Source: Vulcanimicrobiota bacterium (lineage in GTDB: Bacteria; Vulcanimicrobiota; Vulcanimicrobiia; Vulcanimicrobiales; Vulcanimicrobiaceae). Taken from it: a DNA stretch of 64,000 nucleotides. The stretch lies in NCBI GenBank assembly GCA_963723485.1, contig CAVRQS010000003.1, positions 376,371 through 440,370 of the forward strand, given 5' to 3'. The position numbers and the translations under genes were made by a program. The notes under the pieces were generated by a model. It was not told the origin of the DNA and searched no databases. It worked only from the letters and a program-made list of their open reading frames with translations. The stretch's first letter is position 1. Every line of letters begins with the position of its first letter. Of this stretch, positions 4,316 through 56,570 are shown piece by piece.

Positions 4316-4320
4316 CAACA

Positions 4321-33426: not shown

Positions 33427-33457
33427 AAGATTTTCCTCAAAAACCGTCCCCTGACGA

Positions 33458-33500
33458 TTGTCATCTGAGCGCAACCCGAAGGATTGCAGTCGAAGGGCGC
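33458..33500. repeat. degenerate REP-like element copy in the rpoC upstream region
   Basis: ttgtcatctgagcg...ccgaaggattgc agtcgaagggcgc compares with ttgtcaccctgagcggagtcgaagggtgac at 3073-3102. Confidence 0.4.
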
Positions 33501-33698
33501 CGCCTACGCAGGGAATCGCTCTCACGTCGTCACGTAAGGGTTCCCACCGCCGCCGCTGGCCCGGGGGCACGGCCATAGAGTATATCACCTCGGTCCGCCG
33601 TCCTCAAGCGGGCCGGGCGCGGCCGTCGCGTACGAGTGAGTCTTGCGCCGAAAGCCCTAAACTCAGGCATCGCCCAGCTTCCTGGGTACGCGAATATC

Positions 33699-39480: not shown

Positions 39481-39542
39481 TGCGAGTCCCTACCCATCCC
39501 TCATGGTGGGGAATCTCCAAGCGGCCGCAAGCCTACTGGAAG

Positions 39543-39884: not shown

Positions 39885-40542
39885 TCGTTGGTGGACGCTT
39901 GCGCATGCGCCGACTCCAGAGCGAACGAGTAATCTTTGAACTGCGCGCTTGCGGAGAGGTCGAGATGCGGCTCGTCGATGTCGGCCGTGAGCGAGGCGGG
40001 CAACATGAACCCGTCGACACTGCCGAAATTGACGTTCATCTTGATTTCGGTTCCGTCGTTGTACGACGCATCGATTTGCCGCGCGCACCACTTCGGCCCG
40101 AGGGCGACGACCGCGCCCTTCAAAGAGGAGTCGTCGATTGCGCGCAAATCGAACAAGGTAGCGCCGTCTTCCTGCCCCGCTTCTTGGTACAGGAAGCGCG
40201 AGGGCCATAGGGATGGCTCCAACATCGCAAGATCCGTGTCGTGCGCGCGTGGCGGCGCAAACCACGGCAGCTTCGTAAAATGGACCTCGTACGCTTTGCC
40301 GGGCTCGTACCTGCCCACCCCCGAGGCGCGGAAATGCAGCCACGGAAAGTGGCGCATCGCCATCGCAACGTCGACGTCAAAAGTGAAGGCGGGCAACGAG
40401 GGTGTCCTAGCAAAATTCGTCCCGGGGCCTCCGGGGTTGTTGCAGGCTCGCGCGGGCGCGGTGCACAGGAGCGACGCGAGCGCCGCCAAGAGGAGAATGC
40501 TCTCCGGTGCGCGTCCGCCTTCCCAGTTTGGGATATAAGCCA
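39881..40542 (-). CDS. hypothetical secreted protein
   Basis: The preferred start is GTG at 40542, which gives the signal-like ILLLAALASLLCTAPARA. A TATACT box lies 6 nt upstream. ATG at 40660 is the ORF-track start. No family recognised. Confidence 0.5.
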
Positions 40543-40641
40543 CAAATAAAGTATACCCATGCCTGGAGGGGCGCACTACAGCGCAATGATCATTCTCCGA
40601 AGGGGGTGCGGCCGGGCGACCGGCCGTAACCCGATCACCTG

Positions 40642-41784
40642 ATGGAACGGGGACCCGCATGGCGTAACGCTGCGGACGCCTGGTTCAAGCTGCTAGCGGC
40701 GATAGGGATCGGCTACTTCTTGCTCGGGCAGACCGTTGCCATACTGAAGGATTTCAGTGGCATAGCGGTCATTCTGATCGGCGGCATTCTGCTCGCATAT
40801 TTCGTCTATCCCGCAATCGCCCGCCTCAACCGCCGGCTGCCTCTCTGGGCGGCGTTATCGATCGTCTACGTCAGCGGGCTCGTCGTCATTGCGGCCATCT
40901 TTTACCTGCTCGTGCCGCAGGCCGTCGCCCAGATCGAGGGCCTCGTCCACGACTGGCCGATCATCGAAAAGTCGGTGCGCGGCTATATCGAGAGTCCGGA
41001 CAATCCGTTCTTCACGACGCTGCCCGCGGCCGCTCAGGATTGGATTATGAAGCTGCCGAGTCAGGTGGGCGCGGATTTGCAGCGCCATGCGCTCGCGTAC
41101 GGTTCTCGGGTGGTCAACGCTCTCGCGATCGTCGTCGGCGTCGGCGCATTGGCCATCGCGATACCGGTTGTGTCGATCTACATGCTTGCCGAATCGCCGA
41201 TGATCAAACGCTTCTTCGTGCAAAGCTTCAAGCCGCGCTCTCGCGCTCGGGTCGTAGCGATCCTGCACGACGTCGATCAGGTGATCGGGGGATTCATTCG
41301 CGGGCAGATCATCGTCGCGGCGGTCGTGGGAATCCTCGCGATCGTCGCCCTCATGATCCTGCACGTTCGCTACGCGGTCATCATCGGCGTCTGGGCAGGC
41401 ATCATGGATATCATTCCGTACATCGGCCCCATCGCGGGCGCCATCCCCGCGGTGATCGTTGCGTTGATCTTCAACGGGCCCGGCGCCGCGCTCGGCGTGA
41501 TAGTAGCGTTCACCGTGATCAATCAACTGGAGGGACACCTGCTCGCGCCTCGCATCGTCAGCAACAGTGTGAAAATCACGCCGCTGGCGGTCATCTTCGC
41601 GCTGCTGATCTGCGCCAAAATCTTCGGGTTCATCGGCCTGATCGTCGCCGTCCCTCTCGCCGGAATCGTCCGCGTGTTTCTCACGCACATCTTCCAAGAG
41701 GATGCCGTAACAAACGCGCAGCTGAAGCCTGGCCTGACTCAGGCGCCCCGTTCTCGAGTCGATCCTCGAGCCACGAAATCGTAG
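40642..41784 (+). CDS. AI-2E family transporter (PerM/UPF0118)
   Basis: 380 aa with 8 helices. The motif IPYIGPIAGAIPAVIVAL...QLEGHLLAPRIV is typical of the family. Confidence 0.9.
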   Translation: MERGPAWRNAADAWFKLLAAIGIGYFLLGQTVAILKDFSGIAVILIGGILLAYFVYPAIARLNRRLPLWAALSIVYVSGLVVIAAIFYLLVPQAVAQIEGLVHDWPIIEKSVRGYIESPDNPFFTTLPAAAQDWIMKLPSQVGADLQRHALAYGSRVVNALAIVVGVGALAIAIPVVSIYMLAESPMIKRFFVQSFKPRSRARVVAILHDVDQVIGGFIRGQIIVAAVVGILAIVALMILHVRYAVIIGVWAGIMDIIPYIGPIAGAIPAVIVALIFNGPGAALGVIVAFTVINQLEGHLLAPRIVSNSVKITPLAVIFALLICAKIFGFIGLIVAVPLAGIVRVFLTHIFQEDAVTNAQLKPGLTQAPRSRVDPRATKS

Positions 41785-41811
41785 CGGCCGAAAGGTGGGT
41801 ACACCGATGGC

Positions 41812-42534
41812 ATGAAGCTCGCTGCCGGCGCGCTTGCGCTGCTGGCGTTCGTGCCGCTGAAGGCTCCGTCTGCCGAGGAAGCGGCCGACCTCTACGCGAT
41901 GCACTGCTCGTCGTGTCACGGCGACCACGGCCAAGGGTCCAACGTCGCACCGTCGCTGATCGGCCGGTCGGCAGCCGACATTCACTTCATGCTCGACACC
42001 GGCAGGATGCCCGCGACGATCCCGTATGTCGGCGAAATTCATCGCGAGCCGCGCTTCACGCAGGTACAGATGGCCCGGCTAGTGCGCTACATCCAGGCGT
42101 TCTCGCCGGCTCCGCCGGACGCGTCGCTGCCGCTCGTAATGCCGGGGAACGTCCAGCGCGGCCGCGCGCTCTTCGCCGAGAACTGCGCCCAGTGCCACGG
42201 CGCCGCGGGCGCCGGCGCTTCCGTGGGATCCGCCGACGTCGCACCGTCGCTCGGCGTTGCGACGGTCTTCCAGGTGGCAGAGGCCATCCGTGCCGGACCG
42301 TCCGTTATGCCGCGCTTCGGACCCGACGTGTTGAGCGATCAGGACGTCAGCGACATAGCCCGGTACGTCAACTACGCACAGACGCAGGCCGGCATTCCCA
42401 ACGGGGAGGACGCAGGCGGCTTCTCGTTGGGCCACGTCGGACCGGTCGCGGAGGGCTTCGTGGCTTGGCTCTTCGGATTGGGCGCGCTGGTGCTGTTCGT
42501 CCGCAGGATCGGCACGGCCGGCACGGACGAGTGA
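41812..42534 (+). CDS. qcrC: dihaem cytochrome c subunit of the bc1 complex (QcrC-like)
   Basis: Signal peptide, two CxxCH motifs (CSSCH, CAQCH) and a C-terminal TM anchor (FVAWLFGLGALVLFV), as in actinobacterial QcrC. Confidence 0.8.
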   Translation: MKLAAGALALLAFVPLKAPSAEEAADLYAMHCSSCHGDHGQGSNVAPSLIGRSAADIHFMLDTGRMPATIPYVGEIHREPRFTQVQMARLVRYIQAFSPAPPDASLPLVMPGNVQRGRALFAENCAQCHGAAGAGASVGSADVAPSLGVATVFQVAEAIRAGPSVMPRFGPDVLSDQDVSDIARYVNYAQTQAGIPNGEDAGGFSLGHVGPVAEGFVAWLFGLGALVLFVRRIGTAGTDE

Positions 42535-42548
42535 TCGAGGCGCAGGAT

Positions 42549-42941
42549 CTAGGGCCCGGTTCGCGCGCTTTCCGCACCGAGTCGCCAAAAACACAGGATC
42601 ATTCCAATCAAACCGGCGATGCCGAGGAGCGGCGACCAAAGCATTCCAACCAGAAGTGCGAGCGTGCACAGCGCTATCAAAATCGGCCATGGACTCTCGG
42701 TCGTGAACACGTCGAGCACCTCGCCGGCGACGCGCTCGTTAGTCTCGTCCGGATCGTCGCCCTCCAAGTGCGCCTCGCGCTCGGCCAGCACCGCATAGAG
42801 CGTCGCGAATGCCAGCGCGGCCCCCATCACGGCGAGCAGCGCCGTGCCCGCAGCCTCTTCGTGCGCAACGAACCAGTATACGATCGCGATCGCGAAACCG
42901 AACGCGGCATCGATTGCAAACAATCCGACGAACGTCTTCAT
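42549..42941 (-). CDS. ctaF: cytochrome c oxidase subunit IV (actinobacterial CtaF type)
   Basis: 130 aa with 4 helices. Motifs YWFVAHEEAAGTALL and AGEVLDVFTTESPWP. Located directly downstream of ctaD. Confidence 0.75.
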   Translation of the reverse strand: MKTFVGLFAIDAAFGFAIAIVYWFVAHEEAAGTALLAVMGAALAFATLYAVLAEREAHLEGDDPDETNERVAGEVLDVFTTESPWPILIALCTLALLVGMLWSPLLGIAGLIGMILCFWRLGAESARTGP

Positions 42942-42948
42942 TCTTCGC

Positions 42949-44502
42949 TCAAGACTCCAGCGCCGGCCGACGGCCCCGAATCGGCGGCAGCGCCTCGAAA
43001 TTGAACTCCGGCGGGGGCGAGCTCGTCATCCACTCGAGCGAATAGCCGCCCCAGGGATTATCAGCGACCGGTGCCCTTCTCCGTGCCGAGACGAGCACGT
43101 CGACGAAGAAAGCGATCGCGCCAAGGGTCATCAAGGCGGCGCCCAAGGACGCGATTCCGTTGAGCAACGCCAGGTGGCCGATCGCGGGATAAGTGTAGAC
43201 GCGGCGCGCCATGCCTTCCATGCCCATGAAGCCCATCGGAATAAATGTCCCGTTGAAGCCCACGAAGAGCAAGGCGAAGGCCCAGCGGCCGATGCGCTCG
43301 TCGAGCCGGACGCCGAACATCTTCGGAAACCAGAAATACAGCGCGCCGAAGAGGGCGAACATACTTCCGCCGCCGATCGTATAGTGGAAGTGCTGAACGA
43401 TGAAGTAACTGTCGTGGGCATGGTAATCGATGGGCGGCGACGCGATCATCACGCCCGTGATGCCCCCGATGAGAAAATTCAGCATGAAGCCGATCGCGAA
43501 CAGCATGGGAACGGTCAAGGCGATGGATCCCTTCCACATGGTCCCGATCCAGTTGACGAACTTCACGCCCGTAGGGACCGCGATCAGGAAGGAGACTGCG
43601 GAGAAGAACGGGTTGCTCACCGCCCCCGTCGTGAACATGTGGTGCGCCCATACGCCAAGCGACAGGCCTGCGATTGCAAAGGCCGCGATTACCATCCCGA
43701 CGTATCCGAAGACGGGCTTCCGCGAGAACGTGGCGACGATCTCGGTAATGATGCCGAAATAGGGCAGGATCATCACGTAAACTTCCGGGTGGCCGAAGAA
43801 CCAAAAAAGGTGCTGATAGAGAATCGGATTGCCGCCGAATGCAGGGTCGAAGAAGTGTCCGCCCATGTGCCGTTCGATCAGCACGAGGGCGAACGCGGCG
43901 GCCAGCGACGGGAAGGCCATCAGTACCAGGACGGCGGTGGCCACGATCTCCCACGTGAAGATCGGCATCCGCCACATCGTCATGCCGGGTGCGCGAAGCA
44001 GAAAGACGGTCACGAGCAGATTGATCGACGTGACGATCGTGGAGACGCTCGTCATCAACAGACCGATGAAGAACAGGTCCTGCCCCGCCCCGGTGCCCTC
44101 GAAGAACTCGTCGAGCGGCGCATAGGAGGTCCAGCCCGTCGCCGCCGCTCCGCCATACGCCGCGAGGCCCGCGAAGACGGTGATTCCGCCGAGCACGAAC
44201 AGCCACAGCCCCGTCGCGTTGAGCCGGGGAAAGGCCACGTCCGGCGCACCGATTTGAAGCGGAACCAAGTAGTTGGCCAGACCGATTCCGAAGGGCGCGA
44301 TCACCAGGAAAATCATGGCGGTGCCGTGCAGAGTAAAGATCTGATTGTACGCGTGCGCGCTCAACAACGAATTATCCGGCACGGCCAATTGCGCGCGAAT
44401 CAGCGCGGCGAGCACTCCCGCCGCGACGAAGAAGCCTAGCGTCGCAACGACGTACATGATGCCGATCTTCTTGTGATCGGTGGTCGTGATCCACTCGATC
44501 AC
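42949..44502 (-). CDS. ctaD: cytochrome c oxidase subunit I
   Basis: GTG start at 44502 overlaps the ctaC stop (GTGA). WITTTDHKKIGIMY, FFGHPEVYV, WAHHMF and HDSYFIVQHFHY haem/CuB ligand motifs. The ORF-track start at 44706 is an upstream artefact. Confidence 0.95.
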   Translation of the reverse strand: MIEWITTTDHKKIGIMYVVATLGFFVAAGVLAALIRAQLAVPDNSLLSAHAYNQIFTLHGTAMIFLVIAPFGIGLANYLVPLQIGAPDVAFPRLNATGLWLFVLGGITVFAGLAAYGGAAATGWTSYAPLDEFFEGTGAGQDLFFIGLLMTSVSTIVTSINLLVTVFLLRAPGMTMWRMPIFTWEIVATAVLVLMAFPSLAAAFALVLIERHMGGHFFDPAFGGNPILYQHLFWFFGHPEVYVMILPYFGIITEIVATFSRKPVFGYVGMVIAAFAIAGLSLGVWAHHMFTTGAVSNPFFSAVSFLIAVPTGVKFVNWIGTMWKGSIALTVPMLFAIGFMLNFLIGGITGVMIASPPIDYHAHDSYFIVQHFHYTIGGGSMFALFGALYFWFPKMFGVRLDERIGRWAFALLFVGFNGTFIPMGFMGMEGMARRVYTYPAIGHLALLNGIASLGAALMTLGAIAFFVDVLVSARRRAPVADNPWGGYSLEWMTSSPPPEFNFEALPPIRGRRPALES

Positions 44503-45155
44503 GGCGTGACCGTTCCGTTCGTGGCGAGGTAGCGCGCGTATGCCGCTGCCGGAACGACCCGCACGACGAACGTCATCAAGGCGTGATCGAGACCGCAGAA
44601 CTGAGCACACCGTGACGGGAAGCGACCCGTTCGGGTTGGAGTGATGTCGAAGACGTTGGTCATGCCCGGGATCGCGTCGCGCTTGAAGAGGAAGGCCGGG
44701 ATCCAAAACGAGTGCGTCACGTCTTCAGATCGCAGGTCGATCTCCGTCGGCCGCCCGAGCGGCAGGTAGAGCGTCGGCGGCACCATCGGCGTACCTAAAC
44801 CTGAAACACCTCCGGGGTACTGAAACCGCCACGACCAACGAAACGCGGTGACGACGATCCGATTCGGCGGATCGGCGACGCGATCGATCGGCATCTCGAT
44901 CGCGAACGTCACCCCGAACAGCGCGATGACCAGAAGCAGCGGAATAGCGACGTAGAGAATTTCGAGGGGCGTGTTGCCGCTGAACTGCGCGGGCGCGCGG
45001 CCCTCGCGCTCGCGATAGGCGAGGAGGCACCAGGCGATGCACGCGTACACGAAGATTCCGACAAACAGCCCCGCGCCGATAAAGACGTACCAATCGGTAC
45101 GCATCGCGACGCCCTCCGCGGACGCCGGATTCAACAGCCACTCCACTGCGTGCAT
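44499..45155 (-). CDS. ctaC: cytochrome c oxidase subunit II (no fused cytochrome c domain)
   Basis: Two TM helices. CuA motif DVTHSFWIP...CAQFCGLDHALM. Confidence 0.9.
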   Translation of the reverse strand: MHAVEWLLNPASAEGVAMRTDWYVFIGAGLFVGIFVYACIAWCLLAYREREGRAPAQFSGNTPLEILYVAIPLLLVIALFGVTFAIEMPIDRVADPPNRIVVTAFRWSWRFQYPGGVSGLGTPMVPPTLYLPLGRPTEIDLRSEDVTHSFWIPAFLFKRDAIPGMTNVFDITPTRTGRFPSRCAQFCGLDHALMTFVVRVVPAAAYARYLATNGTVTP

Positions 45156-45210
45156 CTCTTACCCAATTGCTCGTCGTGTAGAAAAGCGGTGACGCGGGTA
45201 GTACGAAGCC

Positions 45211-45801
45211 ATGCCTAGTTCGGCGAACGGCAGCGCTCGGCCGCTTGCGCCGCTGCCTGTTCGCGCGCATCCGCTGGTTTTCGGCGTCGTCTTGTTGCTC
45301 GCGTCGGAGCTGATGTTCTTTGCCGCCCTCTTTGCGGCGTATTACGACCTGCGCGCGAATCGCGCGCAGTGGCCGCCGCCGATGGTACACCTCGACGTTC
45401 CCGAGGCGAGCTTCGGCACGTTTTTGCTGTTCGCAGCATCGGCCGTCATGCTGCTGACGACGCGCGCGATGGATCGCGGACGCCTGCGCGCCGCACGCTG
45501 GTGGACGGCCAGCGCGATAGTCGCGGCGATCGGCTTCGTCGCGGTCGCGATCCACGGCTACTCCAAAGACGCGTTCACGATAGCGACCAACGCGTATGGC
45601 TCGATCTATTACACCATGACCGGCTTCCATTTGCTCCACGTGATCGCCGGCATCGGTATACTCGCCGCTCTGCTGATCGGGATGCGCAGCCGCGCGCTGC
45701 TCGTCAACCAGCGCGCCGGCGCCGAGGCGATGACCTACTACTGGCACTTTGTCTTCATCGTGTGGCTCGGCATCTTCGGCACCATCTACTTCGTGCGATG
45801 A
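45211..45801 (+). CDS. ctaE: cytochrome c oxidase subunit III
   Basis: 196 aa with 5 helices. Motifs ASELMFFAALF, YYTMTGFHLLHV and YWHFVFIVW. Confidence 0.9.
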   Translation: MPSSANGSARPLAPLPVRAHPLVFGVVLLLASELMFFAALFAAYYDLRANRAQWPPPMVHLDVPEASFGTFLLFAASAVMLLTTRAMDRGRLRAARWWTASAIVAAIGFVAVAIHGYSKDAFTIATNAYGSIYYTMTGFHLLHVIAGIGILAALLIGMRSRALLVNQRAGAEAMTYYWHFVFIVWLGIFGTIYFVR

Positions 45802-46610
45802 GTCCGCGCAGGCAGCTGGCCGTCGCGGGCGCGCTGTTCGCCGCCGTACTGGGCAGCGCCGGCTTCATCGCCGCGTACTTCACCGGGGGCGATCGTCTCT
45901 ACGAGGGAGTCGCTATCGCAATTGCCGCCGCCGGCCTTTGCGGCGCCTCCCTCGGGTGGGCGTTCTGGATCGTGCCGCCCGAAGAGGTGACCGACCAAAT
46001 AGAGACCTATCCTTCGCCGCCGGGGGAGCGCTCGGCCGAAGAAGCAGCAGTCGCCGCCGATCTCCGCGCCGTGTCGCGTCCGCACGCGCTGGTCTATCTG
46101 CTCTACGCCGCGCTCGGTAGTTTCGCCGCGGCGCTCATCGTGCCGATTCGGTCGCTCGGTCCCGCGCCGGCCGACGCGCTCTTTCATACGCGTTGGCGTC
46201 GGGGCACCCCGCTCGTGCGCGAGGACGGCAGCGTCATAAGCGTCGACACGCTCAACGTGGATTCTGCGGTCACCGTCTTCCCGCAAGGCGCCGTCGGCGA
46301 CGCGCAGTCGCAAGCCACGCTGATTCGCCTCCCCAAAGACGTCCCGGGCAGCGTGCGCGGCTACGTCGCCTACTCGCGCCTCTGCACGCACGCCGGTTGT
46401 CCGGTAGCGCTCTACCGCGCCGCCGCGAGAGAGCTGCTCTGTCCCTGTCACCAGTCGGTGTTCGACGTCGTCGGCAACGGCGCGGTGATCTCGGGTCCCG
46501 CCGATCACGCGCTACCGCAACTCCCGATCGCCGTCGCGGCGGACGGAAAGCTGGTCGCGACCGGCGACTTCCCGGAACCGGTCGGCCCAAGCTTTTGGGA
46601 GCGGAGCTGA
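45798..46610 (+). CDS. qcrA: Rieske iron-sulfur subunit of the bc1 complex
   Basis: ATG at 45798 overlaps the ctaE stop (ATGA). N-terminal TM helices. Rieske boxes CTHAGCP and CPCHQSVF. Confidence 0.9.
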   Translation: MSPRRQLAVAGALFAAVLGSAGFIAAYFTGGDRLYEGVAIAIAAAGLCGASLGWAFWIVPPEEVTDQIETYPSPPGERSAEEAAVAADLRAVSRPHALVYLLYAALGSFAAALIVPIRSLGPAPADALFHTRWRRGTPLVREDGSVISVDTLNVDSAVTVFPQGAVGDAQSQATLIRLPKDVPGSVRGYVAYSRLCTHAGCPVALYRAAARELLCPCHQSVFDVVGNGAVISGPADHALPQLPIAVAADGKLVATGDFPEPVGPSFWERS

Positions 46611-46629
46611 TCGTGCTTGCCCTTACGAC

Positions 46630-48000
46630 ATGACCAACGTCGAGCGGTTCCTGCTGTGGGTCGACGACCGTCTGGGAACGGCGCATTTCGTGCCCCACGC
46701 GCTGCGCAAGGCATTCCCCGACCACTGGTCGTTCATGCTCGGCGAGATCAACCTGTACGTATTCCTCGTGTTGCTCGCGACGGGCACGTTCCTAGCGTTC
46801 TTCTTCAAGCCGAGCGCCGCGGAGACGATCTACCACGGACCATATAGGCTGCTCGATGGCGCGCACGTCTCGCACGCCTACGCGTCGACGCTGGATCTGA
46901 GCTTCGTCGTCAACTGCGGCCTGCTGGTGCGTCAGATCCATCATTGGGCCGCGCTCGTTTTCGTTGCCGGCATCGCGACGCACATGGGGCGCGTATTCTT
47001 CACGGCGGCGTTCCGCAGACCGCGCGAGATCAACTGGATCATTGGCGTGCTGCTCTTCTGGTCGGCGCTCTTCGAGGGGTTCACGGGTTATTCGCTGCCC
47101 GACGATCTCCTGAGTGGAATCGGATTGCGCATCGCGGACGCCGTGCTGCTCGCGGTCCCGGTGCTGGGTACTTGGCTATCGTTTCTGTTGATCGGGGGCA
47201 TCTATCCGACCGAGCAGATCGTCGAGCGGCTTTTCGTGGTGCACATCTATCTCATGCCGGCGATCATCGCGACCCTGATCGCGCTGCACCTAGCCATCGT
47301 GTGGCGCCAGAAGCATTCACAGTTCCCGGGGCCCGGCCGCACCGAGCACAACGTCGTCGGGTCGCCGATGGTGCCGCGGTACGCAGCCAAATCGATCGCG
47401 CTGCTGCTCGCCGTCGTCGCCGCCCTATCGGCGCTCGGGGCGCTGGTCCAGATCAATCCCGTGTGGCTATGGGGACCGTACAAGTCGTGGATCGCGTCGA
47501 GCCCAGCGCAGCCGGACTGGTACATCGGCTGGCTCGAGGGTGCGCTGCGCATGGGTCCCGCGTTCGCACTGCATCTCTGGGGCCATACGGTCCCATCGCC
47601 ATTTTGGCCCGCGGCGTTGTTGCCGCTCGTTTTATTCGTTCTTTTGCTGATCTGGCCGTGGATCGACGCCGCCCTGCGCCACGATCGGCGCCCGCATCAA
47701 TTGCTCGACAACCCGCGCGACGTTCCGTGGCGCACGGCCCTCGGCGTGGCGGTCTTCGTCTTTGCCCTCGGGCTCACGCTTGCCGGAAGCGACGACGTGC
47801 AGGCGCGTTACGTGCACGCGCCGATCACGGCGATTACGCAATTCTACAGGTACTTCTGCATCGTCGGACCGATCTTGGGGTTCGTGATCGCATACGTTGT
47901 CGCCGCCGAGTTGCGGGCGAGCGGCGGCGTACAGAAGGCGCCGCGCATCCGGCTCCGCCGCAACGCGCGCGGCGGCTTCGACGAGGAGCCGCTCCCGTGA
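46630..48000 (+). CDS. qcrB: cytochrome b subunit of the bc1 complex
   Basis: 456 aa. Motifs FPDHWSFMLGEINLY and RQIHHWAA. The long actinobacterial-type QcrB architecture. Confidence 0.92.
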   Translation: MTNVERFLLWVDDRLGTAHFVPHALRKAFPDHWSFMLGEINLYVFLVLLATGTFLAFFFKPSAAETIYHGPYRLLDGAHVSHAYASTLDLSFVVNCGLLVRQIHHWAALVFVAGIATHMGRVFFTAAFRRPREINWIIGVLLFWSALFEGFTGYSLPDDLLSGIGLRIADAVLLAVPVLGTWLSFLLIGGIYPTEQIVERLFVVHIYLMPAIIATLIALHLAIVWRQKHSQFPGPGRTEHNVVGSPMVPRYAAKSIALLLAVVAALSALGALVQINPVWLWGPYKSWIASSPAQPDWYIGWLEGALRMGPAFALHLWGHTVPSPFWPAALLPLVLFVLLLIWPWIDAALRHDRRPHQLLDNPRDVPWRTALGVAVFVFALGLTLAGSDDVQARYVHAPITAITQFYRYFCIVGPILGFVIAYVVAAELRASGGVQKAPRIRLRRNARGGFDEEPLP

Positions 48001-49068
48001 GGCGAAGGCAACTCAAAGTGGCCTGCTGGATCGCGGCGTTCGCCCTCGGCGCGGCAGCCATTGCCCCGCCGCTCGACCGACTCGCCGATCGTTCCTTTAC
48101 CTGGCATATGCTGCAGCATCTCGTGCTGCTGTACTGTCTTCCGCTGCTCGTGCTTCTCGCGCGGCCCTTCGACACGTTCGCCGCTCTCGCAGGGAAGAGC
48201 GCGACGGCGCGGCTCGTGCGCGCGACGCGTCCACTGCACGTTCTCGCGTCGCCTCCTGTGGCTCTCGGTGTCTTCGTTGCTGCGATGTGGCTGACGCACT
48301 ACTCCGGTCTCTACGAGCGATCGCTCGAGAGCGCGCCCGTGCACGCCGCCGAGCATCTCGTCTATCTCCTGGCCGGCACGCTGTTCTGGCTGCCGGTGCT
48401 CGCGCCGCCGCCGTTGCGTCCCTGGAGCTTCCCGGCGCGACTGCTGTACCTCGTGCTGGCGCTGCCCCAGGGGGCGCTGCTCGGCATGGCCCTGGGCAGC
48501 GCGCGCGAGCCGCTCTATCCGCACTACGTAGCGCTGGAGGGCTCGATCTCCGCGGCGCTGCGCGACCAACACGCCGCCGCCGCGCTCATGTGGATCGCCG
48601 GCGGCATGATCGTGTTCGCGGCGCTGTTGATTGTGCTGGGCGCGTGGGCGCGCCGCGAATCGATCACCGCCGTCGCACCCCCGCTCGCGATCCTGTTGTG
48701 CGCGATCGTGCTGCGCGGCGCGGTCGCGGCGCCGCCGGCCCCTGCTGCGCCGGCATACACAGAGGAGCAGGCCGTCAAGGGACAGATTCTATTCTACGAA
48801 AACTGCGCCGAGTGTCACGGCGCCAGCCTCGAAGGCAATTTCGGCCCGGCGCTCGCCGGATCGAATGTCGAACGTGCAGTGGGAGACGGTGAGCTATGTC
48901 TGGACCTACATGACCGCGCACATGCCCGCGGGGAATGCCGGCGGCCTGCGGCCGGAGGAGTACCTCGAGATCATGGCGTTCCTCTTGAAGACGCACGGGC
49001 ATGCGCCCGGCACGGCGGGCTTGTCGCCGCAGGCCGCGGCCGGCTCGAAAGCGTTCATGGGGCCGTGA
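47997..49068 (+). pseudogene. ctaG: caa3-type CtaG assembly factor fused to a C-terminal cytochrome c domain, with the frame broken by a 7-nt tandem duplication
   Basis: GTG at 47997 overlaps the qcrB stop (GTGA). It has 7 helices with the motifs FTWHMLQHLVLL and HAAEHLVYLLAG, followed by YENCAECHG...GPALAGS. The cytochrome c domain continues only in the +1 frame (NVQWETVSYVWTYMTAHMPAGNAGGL...) up to the TGA at 49066-49068. The duplicated heptamers are tcgaatg and tcgaacg at 48861-48874. Confidence 0.7.
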
Positions 49069-50756
49069 AGCCCGCAATCTGCATCGCCGTTCTCGCCGCC
49101 GTCGCCGCGTGTGCCGGCAATTTCGGTTCGCCCTCGTGGCAGCCGGTCACCGACGCACGGCTGCGCGACGCCGCCTCGGACGACGGATGGTTGATGTACC
49201 TGCGCACGTACGACGCCCATGCGTTCGTGCCGTTCGACCAAATCAACGCGCGCAACGTCGCCCGGCTGCACGTCGCGTTCAGGCGTACGTTCTCGATACC
49301 GGAGGGTTATGAGGCTCCGCCGATCGTCAACGGCCGCACAATGATCGTGACGACTCCGATGGATCGGGTATACGCGCTCGACGCGGTGACGGGGAGACCG
49401 CTTTGGGAGTACTCCCGAGACATTCCGAAGGTCGCGCTGCGCACGGTCTGCTGCGACATGGTCAATCGCGGCGTCGCACTTTACGGGAACGATGCGTACC
49501 TGGCGACGCTGGACGCGCACGTCGTGGCCCTCGACGCGCGCAGCGGAAAGGTCGATTGGGATCGCGCGGTCGCCCAGCCCGGCATCGGCTATGCGATGAC
49601 CGCCGCGCCGCTCGCGGTGCGCGGCAACATCGTCGTGGGCGTATCCTGCGGCGAGTACGGCGCGCGCGGTTTTCTGGAGTCGCTCGACGCCAAAACGGGC
49701 GCCCAGCGGTGGCGCTTCTACACCGTTCCGGCACCGGGACAGCCCGGCGGAGAAACCTGGCCGGGCCTGACCTACCGCCACGGCGGAGCATGCCCGTGGA
49801 TGACACCGAGCTACGACGCGGCGACCAACACGATCTTCGCGGGAACGAGCAATCCATCTCCGTGGCTGTGGCTCGAACATCCCGGGCGGAACCTCTACAG
49901 CGACTCGATCCTCGCGCTCGACGCCGACAGCGGTAGATTAAAGTGGTATTTCCAGCAGACGCCCAACGACCCGTGGGACTACGACGCGACCGCGACACCG
50001 CTGCTCGCGACGCTTAGGCTCGGCGGTAAGCCGCGGCAAGTGCTCTTCCAAGCCGCGCGCAACGGCTGGCTCTACCTGATCGATCGCACGAACGGATCGC
50101 TCATCTACATGAAGCGTTACACGATGGCGACATCCGTTACCGGATACGACCGCGCTCGCGGAATCGGTACCGTCAACGCCTCGCTGCGCCCGCAGATCGG
50201 CCAGACCATTTTCACCTGCCCCGCATTCTTCGGAGCCGACAACTGGTGGGCGTTTGCGCTCGATCCTGCAGCGCATGACGTGTTCGTTCCAACGATGCGC
50301 ACGTGCATGAAGCTGAGCGGCCAGAAGCCGGCGAAGGTATTCCACCCGGGCGCGGCAGCGCTGGACGAGGGCTTCGCAGTCATGCCGATGCCGGGCGCGT
50401 ACGGTTGGGGCGCGCTGCAGGCATTCGATCTGCGCAGCGGCGTGCGCGTGTGGACTAAGGAAACGAAGTATCCGTGGACGGACGGCACCCTGTCGACCGG
50501 CGGCCGCCTCGTCTTCAGCGGAACGCCTGACCGCAAGTTCTACGCGCTCGACTCCAGAACCGGGAAGGTACTCTGGACGTTCTACGGCCATTCCGGGTTC
50601 GTAGGTCAGCCGGTCAGCTATCGTGTCGACGGCAAACAGTACGTGGCCGTGCAGAGCGGATATGGCGGCGTCACGCCGTTTTGGGGCGGCAAGAAGGTTG
50701 CGCCCATGTTCCGCCACATCCCGCTCGGCGGCACGCTCTACGTGTTCACCCTTTGA
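49065..50756 (+). CDS. PQQ-dependent alcohol/methanol dehydrogenase family lipoprotein (lanthanide-type D-Y-D signature)
   Basis: GTG at 49065 overlaps the frame-B stop of the upstream gene (GTGA). Lipobox AAVAAC. Vicinal Cys pair TVCCDMVNRG (49449-49454). Motifs GEYGARG, GTSNPSPW and TPNDPWDYD (D-Y-D at 49977-49985). Propeller W-motifs run throughout. Confidence 0.88.
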   Translation: MKPAICIAVLAAVAACAGNFGSPSWQPVTDARLRDAASDDGWLMYLRTYDAHAFVPFDQINARNVARLHVAFRRTFSIPEGYEAPPIVNGRTMIVTTPMDRVYALDAVTGRPLWEYSRDIPKVALRTVCCDMVNRGVALYGNDAYLATLDAHVVALDARSGKVDWDRAVAQPGIGYAMTAAPLAVRGNIVVGVSCGEYGARGFLESLDAKTGAQRWRFYTVPAPGQPGGETWPGLTYRHGGACPWMTPSYDAATNTIFAGTSNPSPWLWLEHPGRNLYSDSILALDADSGRLKWYFQQTPNDPWDYDATATPLLATLRLGGKPRQVLFQAARNGWLYLIDRTNGSLIYMKRYTMATSVTGYDRARGIGTVNASLRPQIGQTIFTCPAFFGADNWWAFALDPAAHDVFVPTMRTCMKLSGQKPAKVFHPGAAALDEGFAVMPMPGAYGWGALQAFDLRSGVRVWTKETKYPWTDGTLSTGGRLVFSGTPDRKFYALDSRTGKVLWTFYGHSGFVGQPVSYRVDGKQYVAVQSGYGGVTPFWGGKKVAPMFRHIPLGGTLYVFTL

Positions 50757-53167
50757 AGCTCGATCACCGAGAATCCCAACGCGTCGATGTCGACCGCGAA
50801 GCCACGCTGGAGTTCGTGGCCCGCTACGTCCTCGTGGCGTACCCACTCACCTAGCATGCTCGTAAAGTAGCGCACGTGATAGCGCCCCCGCATCGGGCGC
50901 GTGAAGCGCAGCGGCGTCGTGACCGTGCGTTGCGCGGTATTGCCCATCAGGATGACGAGATCGGGCCCACGACGCAGGGCGATCTCGGTCACGTCCTCGC
51001 CGACGCGCAGCAGGGGCGTCACGTCGTGCTCGTAGACCTTATGTGCGTACTCCGTCGAAAACTCGAAATTCGCATAGAGGGTCGGCTCGGGCAGTCGCGC
51101 GATGAACCAGCTCAAGCACGCCCCTCGCACGTGCAGATTGCGCACGCCGAGCCACTTCCAGTGCGGCGCCAACCGCGGATTGCACGACGGCCTATGGCCG
51201 CGCATATCCAACCCGGCCGCGCCCTCGATCGCCGCCCACACGTAGCGCGGCGGATACCAGGGCGAGAGCATCATGCCCTGATTGGTTAGCGTCTCGCCGT
51301 GCAGCCACTCGGAAAACTGGCCCGGCACCGTGTTGTTGCGGCCGGGATCGCGGGAGTAGTGTTGGAAGCTCGCACCCAGCGCGTGGGCCATGAACGCGGG
51401 ATTGAAGCGCGCGGCCGCCAGCGCGAAGACGAAGTTCATGCCGACCCAGACACCGCCGAGCAGCCCCCAGCTACGCGTGGGACTATACTCGAGGTCATCG
51501 CGCGGCACCGTCCGAATGCCCGCGTCGGTCCAAAACGGAGGAACGCTGAGCCGGCTGATGATGCGAGCCGCCGTGTCGTGATCGGCGATTCCGAGAAAAA
51601 CCGGAAAGAGCATGTCGGACGTCACGTTCGACCGCGGCGTGCCGTCCACGTCGATGTTCAGGTAGTACAGGCCGGTCTTGGGGTCGAGCAGATGGCGGTT
51701 CATGGCAGCGCGCAGCGTCGCCGCCTCCCGCTCGTAGCGTTGGGCGTCCTTTTTCTTTCCAACCACGAGCGCCATGCCGGCCATCGCCGCGAACGCCGCG
51801 TAGCATTCCGAGTTCACCTCGGTCGAGGCGCCCGATATCCGGTAGTCGTCGATGATGTTACGCCAGCCGACGATACCTTGGACTCCAGTGCCCGTCGACG
51901 TGCACCAGATTAGCCCGCGGTCGTCCCGCTGTGACAGCAGGTAGTCTGCCGAGCGTTTCACAGCGGCGTACGACTCGCGCAGGAAATCCGTATCTCCCGT
52001 GACCAGATAGTGGTGCGCCACCGCCAGGATCATCAGCGGCGTATCGTCGTTGACGTTGAGTCCGTAGTCATTGGACTCGCCGTTGCGGACGTCGTAATAT
52101 TCGACGATCTTGCCGTTGGGCTGGGCGTTTCGCAAATACCAGCGAATCGACTCGCGCGAGAACGCCGGCATGACGTAATCCGATCCCAAGGCGAAGGAGG
52201 CCGTGTCGCATCCCACGCTGTTGTTCGAACGCGTCGGATCGTTCACGAAGCACCAGCCGGTCGGCGCGCACAGCTGTGTGCGCAACATGTCCGCCTTAGC
52301 CCACAGCACGCCCCGATTGACGTTCGTGTCCGGAGTCACGACCACGGCCTCCTCCAACACGTCCTTATAATGCCGGCGCGTCTGCGCGTGGGCGCTCGTG
52401 GCCGGCGGCGCGTTGTGGTAGGCTCGCCGCGCGTCGCGCGCGCCGCGCGCCGATGCGACCATCGTGAACCACACGCGTCTGCGCGAGCGCGGAGCTAGAC
52501 GCAGCCGATGATGAAACAGGGCGATCGGCTCGCTGGCTCCCGCAACGATGCGACCGGACAGCTTACCGACGAAGTGCGAACGATTCATTGCGCCATGGTC
52601 GTCCGTCACTTCGAAACTCGTGGGCGCGCGGGAGCAGCCGATTGCGCGCGCCGCAGAAGGCGCCGAAGCATTCCACGCGACAACCGCGGCGGCCTCGCGG
52701 TCGTACACGGCGCGTACGTCGCGCTCCGTACTACCGCGTAAGAGGGCGCCGGTCATGGCGTCCAGCTCGTGTGTCTCGCTCGAGTCGTTACGGATTTCAA
52801 CCAGGAGGTACGCCGTCAAAGGATCGACGCGATTGCCGACGCTATAGCGGTTGAGCACGAACAGCGTCTCGAGGACCGTGACGTCTTCTTCGATCCGATA
52901 CGCATACTGCTGGCAATCCGGGTAGATCATAAACTTTCCGCCGGCCTTCACGCGTTCCGCTCCGGACGGTCCGTCCCAGAACTGAACCGACACCCCGGCC
53001 ATCACCGTCTCACCGATATCGCTCGCGTAGAGTTTTTCGACCGCACCCGACGCCTTGATGACGATAGACCCTTTGGGGCCGCCCAGCGTGCTGCCCACGG
53101 CGAGCTCCGTATCCTCGATCTCATAGACCGCTATCCGCTCGCCGGAACCGAAGATCCGCGCGCTCAC
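50738..53167 (-). CDS. amylo-alpha-1,6-glucosidase / glycogen-debranching-like (alpha/alpha)6-barrel protein
   Basis: 809 aa. The central and C-terminal region (GLIWCTSTG..GIVGWRN, SECYAAFAAMAG, WGLLGGVWVGMNFVFALA) resembles the GDE_C family. Overlaps the convergent dehydrogenase gene by 19 nt. Confidence 0.7.
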   Translation of the reverse strand: MSARIFGSGERIAVYEIEDTELAVGSTLGGPKGSIVIKASGAVEKLYASDIGETVMAGVSVQFWDGPSGAERVKAGGKFMIYPDCQQYAYRIEEDVTVLETLFVLNRYSVGNRVDPLTAYLLVEIRNDSSETHELDAMTGALLRGSTERDVRAVYDREAAAVVAWNASAPSAARAIGCSRAPTSFEVTDDHGAMNRSHFVGKLSGRIVAGASEPIALFHHRLRLAPRSRRRVWFTMVASARGARDARRAYHNAPPATSAHAQTRRHYKDVLEEAVVVTPDTNVNRGVLWAKADMLRTQLCAPTGWCFVNDPTRSNNSVGCDTASFALGSDYVMPAFSRESIRWYLRNAQPNGKIVEYYDVRNGESNDYGLNVNDDTPLMILAVAHHYLVTGDTDFLRESYAAVKRSADYLLSQRDDRGLIWCTSTGTGVQGIVGWRNIIDDYRISGASTEVNSECYAAFAAMAGMALVVGKKKDAQRYEREAATLRAAMNRHLLDPKTGLYYLNIDVDGTPRSNVTSDMLFPVFLGIADHDTAARIISRLSVPPFWTDAGIRTVPRDDLEYSPTRSWGLLGGVWVGMNFVFALAAARFNPAFMAHALGASFQHYSRDPGRNNTVPGQFSEWLHGETLTNQGMMLSPWYPPRYVWAAIEGAAGLDMRGHRPSCNPRLAPHWKWLGVRNLHVRGACLSWFIARLPEPTLYANFEFSTEYAHKVYEHDVTPLLRVGEDVTEIALRRGPDLVILMGNTAQRTVTTPLRFTRPMRGRYHVRYFTSMLGEWVRHEDVAGHELQRGFAVDIDALGFSVIELQRVNT

Positions 53168-53228
53168 GCTACCGTCGATTGCTTCCGTGAAAGGCGCGCT
53201 CCTTCCACAAGGCCAACACTAGTGCGAC

Positions 53229-54242
53229 GTGCTGATGCTTGGAATCGAAACGTCGTGCGACGACACTGCTGCGGCCGTGGTACGCAACGGTAACAGCGTC
53301 CTATCGAACGTCGCGACGAATCAGGATGCGTTTCACGCCAAGTACGGCGGAATCGTTCCGGAGATCGCGAGCCGCCGCCACGTGGCGCTGCTTTCGGCCG
53401 TCGTCGAAGACGCTCTCGATCGCGCCGGCGTCCGGTACGCCGGCGTCGACGGCATCGCTGTGACGCGCGGGCCCGGGCTGATCGGCAGCCTCGTGGTCGG
53501 CGTCGCAGCGGCAAAAGCGACGGCATTTGCGCTGCGCAAGCCGCTGTATGCCGTAAATCACCTGCACGGACACGTCTTCGCCGCATTCCTCGATCGCGCG
53601 GAAGCGCCGCCTTATCCGTTTTTGGTTTTGCTCGTTTCGGGCGGTCATTCGCAACTCGTGGCGGTGGAGTCGCCCGTGGCGATGCGCATCCTCGGTCGGA
53701 CGCACGATGACGCCGCGGGCGAAGCCTACGACAAGACGGCGCGGCTGCTCGGCCTACCCTATCCGGGCGGGCCGGAGCTCGACTGCCTCGCACGAGGCGG
53801 CAACCCGCGCGCATATGCCTTTCCCCGCCATCGCGCCGCCGGCGACTCGCTGGACCTCTCTTTTTCGGGTCTCAAGACGTCGGTGCGTTACTTTCTCGAA
53901 TCGGAAGCCGGTCGCGATGCGAAGGCGCCCGACATCGCCGCGTCGTTTCAGGCCGCCGTGGTCGACGTCTTGATGGCGCGGGTTGACTCCGCGTTCGAAC
54001 GTGGCCGCTACAACGCCGCGATTCTTTCCGGCGGCGTCGCCGCCAACTCCGCGTTGCAGACGGCGTTTCGGTCGTGGGGCGAGCGCGGCCGCGTTCCGGT
54101 CTTCATTCCGCCGCCGAAATATTGCACTGACAACGCGGCGATGATCGCCGCGGCCGCGTACTACCAGGACGAAGCGGTCCGCATGGATCCGCTATCGCTC
54201 ACCGCCGACCCCAACCTCCCGTTCGAGTTGGGCTCGGGGTGA
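53229..54242 (+). CDS. tsaD: tRNA N6-adenosine threonylcarbamoyltransferase
   Basis: LGIETSCDDTAAAVV, GVDGIAVTRGPGLIGSLVVG, NHLHGH and LLVSGGHS. Start is GTG at 53229 or ATG at 53235. Confidence 0.95.
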   Translation: MLMLGIETSCDDTAAAVVRNGNSVLSNVATNQDAFHAKYGGIVPEIASRRHVALLSAVVEDALDRAGVRYAGVDGIAVTRGPGLIGSLVVGVAAAKATAFALRKPLYAVNHLHGHVFAAFLDRAEAPPYPFLVLLVSGGHSQLVAVESPVAMRILGRTHDDAAGEAYDKTARLLGLPYPGGPELDCLARGGNPRAYAFPRHRAAGDSLDLSFSGLKTSVRYFLESEAGRDAKAPDIAASFQAAVVDVLMARVDSAFERGRYNAAILSGGVAANSALQTAFRSWGERGRVPVFIPPPKYCTDNAAMIAAAAYYQDEAVRMDPLSLTADPNLPFELGSG

Positions 54243-55526
54243 CACTGGGTGATAGAGGTCCGCGCGGGTGGGCGGGAGGTCGACACGGCCGTCTGCGAGC
54301 GGACGCGCCAGCAGCGACTGGTACACGCCGATGCGTCCGATGCGAAAGCCCTGCGCGCTGCCCGCGACGTAGAGCCGCCAGAGGCGATAGCTCTGTTCAC
54401 CCGCGGCCGCGACAGCCGCGTCACGATTGCGTTCGAGATTTTCTACCCACGCGCGCAGCGTCTTCACGTAGTGCTCGCGCAGGCTCTCGACGTCGCGCAC
54501 CTCGAATCCCGCGCGCTCCGCGAACTCGAGCGTGTCCGAGATCGGAACCAGCTCGCCATCGGGAAAGATGAAGTGCCCAAGAAAGCCGCTCGCGCGGCCG
54601 TCGCGTCGCCGGCCGCTTCGATCCGCGATGGCATGATTCAAAAAGAGGCCGCCCGGATTCAGGCCCTCGTATGCGGCGCGAAAGTACTCGGTAAAACGCG
54701 CGCGCCCCACGTGCTCGAACATTCCGATGCTGACGATTTTATCGAAGCGCTCGCCTGCCAGATCGCGGTAGTCGCGCAGCTCCACGCTCGCGCGATCCGT
54801 CAGTCCAGCCTCGATGACGCGCCGCTGCGCCTCTTCACACTGCTTCTCGCTCAACGTTATCCCGAGCGCACGCGCGCCGAAGCGCTGCGCGGCGCGCACG
54901 ACGAGCGCGCCCCATCCGCAGCCGATGTCGAGAAGCCGCTCGCCGGGACGCAGACGCAGCTTATGCAGCGTGTAGTCGAGCTTGGCCGACTGCGCTTCGT
55001 CCAACGATGCTGCGCCGTCCTCCCAGTACGCGCACGAATACACCAGGTCGCGATCGAGGAAGCTGCGGTAGAAGTCGATCGGCTGATCGTAATGGAATCC
55101 GATCGCGGCGCGGTCGCGTGCACGCGAGTGGACTCGCCCACGTAAGCGCGCCTCGCGCATGTCGGCCGGCGCGCTCTTCGGAAGGCGCGCGAGCAGGCGT
55201 AAGAGCTCGATAAATCGCCGTCCACGCGGCGCTCCCGCACGGTAGAAGGCGTCGACCGCGGTCTCGAGGTCGCCGTCAACGTCCAGCAATCCCGCGCCGA
55301 AGGCTCGTCCCGCGGAAAGATCCACCGGAGGGGTGAACGCGGCCCGCAGCGCTCCCGGCGAATTGACACGCAGCGTGAACCGCTCCACATTTGCCGCGCG
55401 CACGCGCGTCCCGTCCCACAGCTCGATGCCGAACTCCCGAACATAGGCGTCCCCGAAGATCGCGCGCAGCACCGCGATGGCGATGCGCGCGTGCGGGTCG
55501 CGCGAGGCGAAGCGCTCAGCGTTCAA
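54192..55526 (-). CDS. cyclopropane-fatty-acyl-phospholipid synthase family methyltransferase
   Basis: HYDQPIDFYRSFLD, SCAYW and the SAM motif LLDIGCGWGALV. The TTG start at 55526 overlaps the upstream gene by 11 nt. The ORF-track start is 55625. Confidence 0.85.
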   Translation of the reverse strand: MNAERFASRDPHARIAIAVLRAIFGDAYVREFGIELWDGTRVRAANVERFTLRVNSPGALRAAFTPPVDLSAGRAFGAGLLDVDGDLETAVDAFYRAGAPRGRRFIELLRLLARLPKSAPADMREARLRGRVHSRARDRAAIGFHYDQPIDFYRSFLDRDLVYSCAYWEDGAASLDEAQSAKLDYTLHKLRLRPGERLLDIGCGWGALVVRAAQRFGARALGITLSEKQCEEAQRRVIEAGLTDRASVELRDYRDLAGERFDKIVSIGMFEHVGRARFTEYFRAAYEGLNPGGLFLNHAIADRSGRRRDGRASGFLGHFIFPDGELVPISDTLEFAERAGFEVRDVESLREHYVKTLRAWVENLERNRDAAVAAAGEQSYRLWRLYVAGSAQGFRIGRIGVYQSLLARPLADGRVDLPPTRADLYHPVSPRAQLEREVGVGGER

Positions 55527-56157
55527 ATGCGACGATCTGATTCGCCTCGCGGTGATTGGTCCAGAAGCGCGCGCCGTCGTAGGCCAGCGCGCGCGCCGCA
55601 AAGGGAATTCGCGCCAAATCTTCACTGTGATTCTCGCCGTCCGCCGACACTTTCGTGAGAAAATACTCCCCGCTATCCTCGTCGTCGGTGGTCACCAGGT
55701 AGAAAGCGCCGTCCGCATAGCACTGCCCGCACACCTGGTGGGGCAGGCCGATCTCGCGGACCACGCTGCCGCGCTCGTCTAGGCCGAGGATGCGCCGATT
55801 GTACCACTGGCTCACGTACAGCCACGTGCCATCGTAGCTCAGCTGCGAGCCGGTGCCGTCGGGGCAGCGGAAGGCGTCCTGCGTCTTGAACCCGTGCCCC
55901 GGTACGAAGCGGCGCACGATACGGTCGTCATCGTCACCCTCCCCGCAGATAACGCGCAGCTCGTCGCCGACGACGGTCATGCCCCACGGCTTTCCTGGGG
56001 CCGTGTCCTCTTCCACAAGCGTCCATTGCCGCGGATCGAGTGCATAGATCCGGTTCGTTTCGATCGAGCCCATCCAAAGTTTCTCACCATCGAAGGCAAT
56101 CGATTGAGGGCGCGGCGCCGGCGAGGGCAGCCGCAGGGCTTCCGTTACATCATGCAC
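55516..56157 (-). CDS. beta-propeller-like hypothetical protein
   Basis: 213 aa with repeated strand-turn motifs (IAFDGEKLWMGS, LSYDGTWLYVSQ, CYADGAFYLVT, LAYDGARFWTN). Function unknown. Confidence 0.55.
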   Translation of the reverse strand: MHDVTEALRLPSPAPRPQSIAFDGEKLWMGSIETNRIYALDPRQWTLVEEDTAPGKPWGMTVVGDELRVICGEGDDDDRIVRRFVPGHGFKTQDAFRCPDGTGSQLSYDGTWLYVSQWYNRRILGLDERGSVVREIGLPHQVCGQCYADGAFYLVTTDDEDSGEYFLTKVSADGENHSEDLARIPFAARALAYDGARFWTNHREANQIVAFER

Positions 56158-56261
56158 AGTGGAGCCCCAGGTTCTTTTCCAAAGGAACGAGGCCTGCGTT
56201 TGCAGGCCTCGCGGCTTCTTGCGTAGGTAAGCTTTTGCTTACGCTGCCATGATGCCCCGAA

Positions 56262-56570
56262 TCAATCCGCATTAAACCACGGCAATCGCGAGAGGCGGCC
56301 GCATGGCGGGTTCCTCCTCTTCGTCCTCCTCGTCGTCGTCGTTGTCCGGCGAGATCCGTTCCAGCGCGCAATATATCTCGCGATACATGCGCCGATCTCG
56401 CGACCTACCTCCTGCCCGCTGCTTGCCGAGGAGTCCCAACTGGACGCTGGGGACGGGCAAACCTCCCTGCGCGCGAGAATACGGCCGTCGATCGTGACGC
56501 CGTCGGCGGCCGCGGCGGGAGCCATCATACGCAGGAGCAGAAGCACCAGCAGAAACCGTGCATGACGCAT
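56262..56570 (-). CDS. possible small secreted protein (frame uncertain)
   Basis: It starts with the signal-like MRHARFLLVLLLLRMMAPAAAADG. The overlapping frame (56272..56580) has the more protein-like 3' half, ending in an acidic run DNDDDEEDEEEEP. A frameshift or miscall is possible. Confidence 0.3.
   Translation of the reverse strand: MRHARFLLVLLLLRMMAPAAAADGVTIDGRILARREVCPSPASSWDSSASSGQEVGREIGACIARYIARWNGSRRTTTTTRRTKRRNPPCGRLSRLPWFNAD

Follow-up and report, generated by a model that had tools for sequence, protein, structure and literature searches.

The window (the whole stretch of DNA that was analysed, 64,000 nt) contains a gene for a CtaG-like protein with a C-terminal cytochrome c domain whose reading frame is broken, and the net lesion is one additional nucleotide relative to all orthologues. 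We infer that the extra base is an artefact and not a real, very recent allele; in our judgement this nucleotide (nominally G48867) is a non-programmed indel, with about even chances of being a consensus error in a long-read assembly. Lone frameshifts of this sort in conserved MAG genes are already known.

Homologues place the window in the Eremiobacterota (source names include Candidatus Cybelea and Baltobacteraceae), and the host genome is accordingly predicted to be a Cybelea/Baltobacteraceae-like member of this phylum. The affected gene is part of an operon with the order ctaE-qcrA-qcrB-ctaG::cytc-PQQ alcohol dehydrogenase, which lies within a respiratory cluster. The features of the cluster and of the site are as follows:

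41812-42534, plus strand: gene for a qcrC-like dihaem cytochrome c
42549-45155, minus strand: ctaF, ctaD and ctaC
45211-45801, plus strand: ctaE
45798-46610, plus strand: qcrA
46630..48000, plus strand: qcrB (cytochrome b), intact (Pfam Cytochrom_B_N_2, E = 2e-56; orthologues are also 456 aa long)
47997..48866, plus strand: 5' part of ctaG::cytochrome c in frame 0, comprising the CtaG domain, the hydrophobic linker and the N-terminal half of the cytochrome c domain
48663..48719, plus strand: hydrophobic stretch ITAVAPPLAILLCAIVLRG between the CtaG and cytochrome c domains, delimited in alignment A1
48804..48818, plus strand: haem-binding CAECH (TGC GCC GAG TGT CAC), upstream of the frame break
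48859..48862, plus strand: GATC motif, 5 nt upstream of the extra base
48861..48874, plus strand: flagged near-repeat, TCGAATG (48861-48867) followed by TCGAACG (48868-48874)
48864-48866, plus strand: AAT, the last in-frame codon of the 5' part of ctaG::cytochrome c
48867..48867, plus strand: nominal extra base G, a 1-nt gap in the blastn and MAFFT alignments to the related contigs L001 and L003
48868..49068, plus strand: 3' portion of the gene, with the rest of the cytochrome c domain in frame 1 (SNVQWETV...KAFMGP)
48922..48924, plus strand: ATG of the conserved H-M-P motif, readable in frame 1 only
49065..50756, plus strand: PQQ-dependent alcohol dehydrogenase (methanol/ethanol family) with its own GTG start

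The GTG at 47997 overlaps the stop codon of qcrB as GTGA (47997-48000). The N-terminal part of the encoded protein matches Caa3_CtaG (PF09678) over residues 6-219 (profile positions 20-236 of 237, E = 7.2e-46, 156.9 bits against a cut-off of 27.7), and the protein obtained after repair of the frame also contains Cytochrome_CBB3 (PF13442) at residues 258-327 (38.9 bits against 27). The Pfam search thus found the fusion of CtaG and cytochrome c that an earlier note had read from the sequence. Both the CxxCH motif and a complete domain, as expected of a class I cytochrome c, are present, with the distal half out of frame as recorded. C270, C273 and H274 are invariant in alignment A1, M307 is conserved in at least 90% of the sequences and P308 in all of them; given what is generally known of class I cytochromes c, we presume the methionine encoded at 48922..48924 to be the axial haem ligand. 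The hydrophobic stretch at 48663..48719 matches the N-terminal signal or anchor of a separate cytochrome c gene in distant relatives and probably serves as a membrane anchor. The dehydrogenase matches TIGR03075 (502.4 bits against a cut-off of 480.05, profile positions 7-530 of 530) as well as Pfam PQQ, and a lipobox-like VAAC was seen by eye at its N-terminus. Its GTG start overlaps the TGA of the cytochrome c frame (49066-49068), again as GTGA. Judging from gene order, the cytochrome c is likely a membrane-anchored electron acceptor of the adjacent PQQ dehydrogenase.

Translated from GTG 47997, frame 0 reads ...CAECHGASLEGNFGPALAGSNVERAVGDGELCLDLHD... and meets no stop until 50756, which gives 919 aa in the recorded sequence, whereas frame 1, with ...MSNVQWETVSYVWTYMTAHMPAGNAGGLRPEEYLEIMAFLLKTHG..., terminates at TGA 49066-49068. 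The CtaG-like reading in frame 0 is sensible through CAECHGASLEGNFGPALAGSN and then becomes nonsense (VERAVGDGELCLDLHD...), so that the junction peptide of the recorded sequence is ...AGSNVERAVGDGE...; the continuation is found in frame 1 as SNVQWETVSYVWTYMTAHMPAGNAGGL...KAFMGP. A codon log-odds scan of the six frames, trained on the long ORFs of the window, placed the point where frame 0 gives way to frame 1 at 48857/48858 and identified it as the sole intragenic frame switch in 64 kb, all other same-strand frame changes coinciding with normal stop/start boundaries (a GC3 frame plot was too noisy for locating switches). Cytochrome_CBB3 is complete (profile positions 2-68 of 68) solely in the repaired protein, and orthologues align across the site in a single frame, which supports the break independently. 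Translation therefore agrees with the earlier note on both the frame-1 continuation to its TGA and the broken frame that stays open, contiguous with the PQQ dehydrogenase, until 50756, and codon usage, Pfam and orthologue alignments concur in placing the break at the near-repeat.

The two heptamers are present at 48861-48874 exactly as they had been described. They sit in a variable loop of three codons downstream of the haem-binding CAECH, which in the window comprises 10 nt (TCG AAT G TCG, 48861-48870) and in every orthologue 9 nt. Enumeration of single-base deletions revealed that the frame and the loop length are restored by removing any one base within 48860-48870 except C48862, the deletion of which creates an in-frame TGA. 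The extra base at 48867 lies outside any homopolymer. The frame break exceeds chance; the heptamer near-repeat by itself is statistically unremarkable. The window contains 135 tandem heptamers with at most one mismatch, the footprints of which occupy 1.6% of its length, and the 14-mer at 48861..48874 occurs there once, with 1.25 matches of up to two mismatches expected by chance.

The size of the lesion follows from comparison with relatives. DNA was read at 16 distinct orthologous contigs of Eremiobacterota (L001/L002, L003/L022, L006-L013, L015, L018-L020, L023 and L024), which show 44-90% identity and include Illumina/megahit and SPAdes assemblies. All 16 run in one frame across the site and have exactly three codons between ...AL(A/S/D/V)(G/A/D) and N(V/L)QW, and three residues likewise precede N(V/L)QW in 16/16 full-length homologous CtaG::cytochrome c proteins (347-381 aa; the 476-aa protein P0046 was kept outside this set, as it has a different C-terminal cytochrome domain). 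The residues of the loop itself vary, with ADS, GGG, GGS, DAS, GDG, THG, SHG and PDG among those observed. Since the loop comprises 9 nt in the orthologues and 10 nt in the window, the net lesion is +1 nt. The closest protein, P0001, is intact, 356 aa long and 90% identical, and the protein homologue search returned no homologue of the CtaG::cytochrome c protein above 90% identity. Its contig, L001, aligns to window positions 40004-56434 with 90.6% DNA identity and shows a single 1-nt gap at the site, opposite position 48867 (GCCGGCGCCGAT-TCGAACGTG versus GCCGGATCGAATGTCGAACGTG). No conspecific genome was present among the genome contigs, where the best relative was 90% identical, and a degenerate DNA pattern spanning the site matched, among metagenome contigs, only two relatives that are more distant and keep the frame, but no conspecific.

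These comparisons contradict the proposal that a 7-nt tandem duplication constitutes the lesion, as 16/16 contigs and 16/16 proteins imply a net change of +1 nt. They equally disagree with the idea that deletion of one heptamer restores the gene: removal of one base yields ALAG-SNS-NVQW, which has the orthologous length, whereas removal of one heptamer yields ALAG-S-NVQW, leaving a loop two residues short of all orthologues. As a tandem duplication, the site thus has adjacent copies that match at 6/7 positions and lacks the ancestral length once one copy is removed.

How the extra base arose is a question separate from whether it is real. A duplication of the 7-nt TCGAACG in an ancestor reading ...AGSNVQW..., followed by a C-to-T substitution, would explain the 6/7 match between the copies and a period-7 match that extends to 15 nt, and the 6 nt displaced by the first copy agree with the closest relative at only 3/6 positions. 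The footprint of such repeats is so small a fraction of the window that their overlap with the break is unlikely to be pure chance, which hints at a slippage or templated component behind the break. The duplication would, however, imply an ancestral loop of one residue where all orthologous contigs and proteins have three, and would require a 6-nt deletion in addition to the 7-nt duplication and the substitution, against which a single 1-nt insertion together with substitutions in an already variable loop suffices. Hexamer near-repeats of the type TCGAAT|TCGAAC are furthermore common, with 898 in the window, and we regard the duplication as an unlikely origin.

The gene organization around the site is shared with relatives to different degrees. 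The same 4-nt overlap of cytochrome c and PQQ dehydrogenase genes and the same gene order were identified in L001, L020 and L022-L024. In L006-L012 and L015, ctaG and cytochrome c are separate genes joined by an ATGA/GTGA stop-start overlap, the cytochrome c gene beginning with M-K-(I/V/T)-hydrophobic. An apparent change from frame 2 to frame 1 near residue 222 in these eight contigs, seen by tblastn, was considered as a conserved frameshift and rejected, being accounted for by the two overlapping genes. L021, a relative of approximately 90% identity, lacks the entire 9-kb block that extends from qcrC through the PQQ dehydrogenase (window 41785-50737), and its AI-2E transporter gene directly adjoins a glycoside hydrolase gene where the block is missing. 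The respiratory block is thus not essential to every member of the clade and may be dispensable and free to decay.

The coding sequence downstream of the lesion bears on the age of the break. We read in frame 1 the 65 codons that run from NVQW (48871) to the stop and polarised their changes by L020 and L003. On the branch leading to the window, 10 changes are synonymous and 3 are non-synonymous; two of these three fall in a single codon of the variable tail. As 76% of possible changes are non-synonymous, three or fewer among 13 would be expected under neutrality with a probability of 7e-5. The same codons contain neither a stop nor an indel relative to L001, L020 and L003. Purifying selection has therefore acted on the downstream frame during essentially the whole separate history of the window, and the break is very young, absent in vivo or bypassed. 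An established (old) pseudogene was rejected on these grounds, there being no relaxed constraint and no further stop or indel downstream of the lesion.

Bypass by programmed +1 frameshifting at AAT-G would yield both CtaG::cytochrome c and a CtaG-dehydrogenase read-through product, and several features appear to suit it: a skip of a single base restores the length of the orthologues exactly, the frame downstream shows conservation, the zero frame is open into the next gene and AAT is fairly rare (5.6 per 1000 codons compared with 20.5 for AAC). Yet restoration to the perfect length is predicted by any 1-nt insertion, the open zero frame is expected from composition, and AAU is only moderately rare. 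By inspection, none of the P-site codons GGA, UCG, AAU and GUC permits +1 re-pairing, and no stop codon occupies the A site (GCC GGA UCG AAU GUC GAA CGU). Searches of the sequence upstream of the site found no GGAGG-like or Shine-Dalgarno-like element, folding of 48840-48960 gave no unusual RNA structure (z = -0.25 against shuffles), no Rfam match was obtained at the site, and there is no A or T run at the site for transcriptional slippage. Orthologues with the same out-of-frame arrangement were looked for as well, and a frame change at the site occurs in 0/16 contigs; the +1 recoding that the earlier note had listed as an option is hence disfavoured, and we consider a programmed event very improbable. 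The release factor gene prfB (RF2) offers a comparison, in that a one-base forward shift would in both cases produce a full-length conserved protein, but the present gene has no conserved shift site, CUU-U-like codon, in-frame stop or Shine-Dalgarno-like stimulator. An unconventional, lineage-specific +1 recoding at UCG AAU G UCG, by which a real base would be bypassed to give CtaG::cytochrome c and a CtaG-tethered dehydrogenase, is in our view more improbable still.

What remains of the earlier options is a real recent mutation, strain heterogeneity or an assembly error. The proteins of the window belong to one NCBI contig, and its length (1,122,691 bp), for a soil phylum that is uncultured, suggests that the source is probably a long-read assembly, in which isolated indels are expected. 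Most public relatives are Microflora Danica MAGs, which were assembled from Nanopore reads only with Flye and one round of Medaka polishing (PMC12313526). L001, which belongs to one of these MAGs, contains 11 isolated extra bases and one missing base within 16 kb, mostly outside homopolymers, and these split its cox1, cox2, cox3, qcrB and PQQ dehydrogenase genes. In the alignment of L001 with the window, 8/15 isolated 1-nt gaps have a GATC of L001 at most 10 nt away, compared with a background of 21%; the GATC at 48859..48862 is possibly relevant to the extra base if the assembly is Nanopore-based, although its proximity is a weak, circumstantial sign of an artefact. The window resembles long-read (Nanopore-only) MAGs and young pseudogenes in its isolated 1-nt indel, fused or split gene calls and conserved downstream frame. 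It differs from errors of the L001 type in having a single lesion in 64 kb, located in a 7-nt near-repeat and not in a homopolymer.

The latter differences would fit a real and very recent mutation, fixed or in the majority in the sampled population. The rest of the window has no broken genes: about 45 other genes appear intact, and about 40 ORFs scanned with Pfam show full-length domains. Together with the lack of any other intragenic frame switch, this indicates a low assembly error rate; the position outside a homopolymer also speaks for a mutation, and TCGAATG/TCGAACG provides a plausible slippage or templated context that suits a mutation no less than an error. The missing block in L021 and the separate ctaG gene in L006-L012 and L015 are likewise in keeping with a real lesion. 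Such a mutation must, on the other hand, be very young, given that downstream constraint has not relaxed, and it would affect a gene that is intact in all 16 orthologous contigs; the probable long-read origin of the window's assembly also speaks against it. We regard a real mutation as a serious possibility that falls somewhat short of an even chance.

The open chimeric frame needs no separate explanation. The read-through frame is that of the PQQ dehydrogenase, as the GTGA overlap introduces an offset of -1 and the lesion one of +1. In this genome, 63% of 66-codon stretches are open in the -1 frame of genes, and the corresponding frame meets a stop after 15 nt in L001, 105 nt in L003 and 225 nt in L020. 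The open frame is a compositional by-product; selection for its length was considered and rejected, since it is expected by composition and not conserved. The prediction that automated callers would report a 919-aa chimera is borne out by an exact protein (P0151, NCBI) in a public collection, which clusters at 90% with PQQ dehydrogenases that bear the JGI name 'alcohol dehydrogenase (cytochrome c)'.

Bacillus-type CtaG (PF09678/TIGR02737) is an assembly factor of caa3/aa3 oxidase. The protein encoded in the window resembles it in that its N-terminal 220 residues cover almost the whole of PF09678 and in its location in a cox/qcr cluster, but it scores only 31.3 bits against the TIGR02737 equivalog cut-off of 279 and is thus a distant member, at the Pfam level only. 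Unlike Bacillus CtaG, it is fused to a cytochrome c domain in the clade of the window, with separate genes in more distant Eremiobacterota; many database entries already contain this CtaG-cytochrome c fusion. ExaB/PedF (c550) and MxaG (cL) are dedicated c-type cytochromes encoded beside PQQ alcohol/methanol dehydrogenases. Like these, the class I cytochrome c of the window is encoded directly upstream of, and coupled to, a TIGR03075-family PQQ dehydrogenase. The models for cytochrome c550, c551 and MoxG, however, match weakly and well below their cut-offs, and the cytochrome of this clade would be membrane-tethered via CtaG or its own anchor, its partnership with the dehydrogenase being suggested by gene order.

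If the extra base is spurious, the cell would make a normal 356-aa protein (...GPALAGSNSNVQWETV...), a CtaG with a C-terminal and probably periplasm-facing cytochrome c, whose stop codon would be translationally coupled (GTGA) to the start of the lipoprotein-like PQQ dehydrogenase. If the base is real, the CtaG domain, which is a stand-alone protein in many relatives, would be unaffected, but the haem-attachment site would lose the distal H-M-P region (ATG 48922-48924) and with it cytochrome c function. Approximately 66 junk residues would then be followed by the in-frame PQQ dehydrogenase as a 919-aa chimera, and the dehydrogenase could still start at its own GTG (49065). The strain would in that case have lost a membrane-tethered cytochrome c that probably links the PQQ alcohol dehydrogenase to the respiratory chain. 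In biological terms the finding is minor and concerns a single gene, broken or mis-called, of a soil bacterium that is uncultured. Through a single indel, a false CtaG/PQQ-dehydrogenase "fusion protein" has nevertheless already entered public collections, where the chimera could mislead the inference of domain architectures or gene fusions.

The respiratory genes of the window lie in a 9-kb block that is absent as a whole from L021, a contig of a relative with approximately 90% identity (L021:9435-10711), in which a glycoside hydrolase gene immediately adjoins the gene for an AI-2E transporter at the place occupied by the block in the window. The transporter of L021 shares 90% amino acid identity with that encoded at 40642-41784. 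The missing block comprises:

41785-50737: qcrC, ctaF, ctaD, ctaC, ctaE, qcrA, qcrB, the ctaG-cytochrome c fusion gene and the PQQ dehydrogenase gene

In L001, the contig of the closest public relative (MFD00731.bin.2.166, also represented as L002), the block occupies the same position as in the window. A second stretch of 1.7 kb (38980-40640), which encodes a DUF2231 protein and an unknown ORF, also has no counterpart in L021.

L001 was aligned to window positions 43500-50100. L001 contains 11 isolated extra bases and one missing base within 16 kb, and its gene calls for cox1, cox2, cox3, qcrB and the PQQ dehydrogenase are broken up by these indels; the CMAS and TsaD genes are likewise split in L021. 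Eight of the 15 isolated 1-nt gaps between L001 and the window are located within 10 nt of a GATC site (background 21%), a motif with a very high density in these genomes (~10 per kb).

The extra base within the fusion gene of the window turns AAT G into ATG (48865-48867), which heads the remainder of the cytochrome c domain in frame 1 (MSNVQWETV...). The putative product starting at this codon would comprise 67 amino acids and lack the haem-binding motif, and no entry for this ORF was identified in the protein collection. The public protein collection includes the 919-aa CtaG-dehydrogenase chimera (47997-50756) as P0151, which groups with genuine PQQ dehydrogenases at 90% clustering, and its CtaG part is therefore masked by the dehydrogenase representative.

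Elsewhere in the window, a nusG-rplK-rplA run (1884-3924, minus strand) is followed by a GAF-domain gene on the plus strand rather than by rplJ-rplL-rpoB. A codon-usage scan gave a weak or mixed coding signal at 4037-7500, a region containing two tRNA genes. Furthermore, rpoC lacks an adjoining rpoB, its upstream neighbour being an F420_oxidored-like gene on the plus strand.

4064-4139, minus strand: tRNA-Trp
4713-4788, minus strand: tRNA-Arg(cct)
29632-33588, minus strand: rpoC, 1318 aa, with all five Rpb1 domains

In the clade of the window (proteins P0001-P0014 and P0016), ctaG and the anchored cytochrome c form a single fused ORF. The more distant Eremiobacterota (L006-L012 and L015) encode them as two genes with an ATGA or GTGA stop-start overlap, as exemplified by the following junction:

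L011:4615-4640, compared with window 48650-48720: ctaG/cytochrome c junction

The two arrangements differ by the fusion or fission of genes at a junction of translational coupling.
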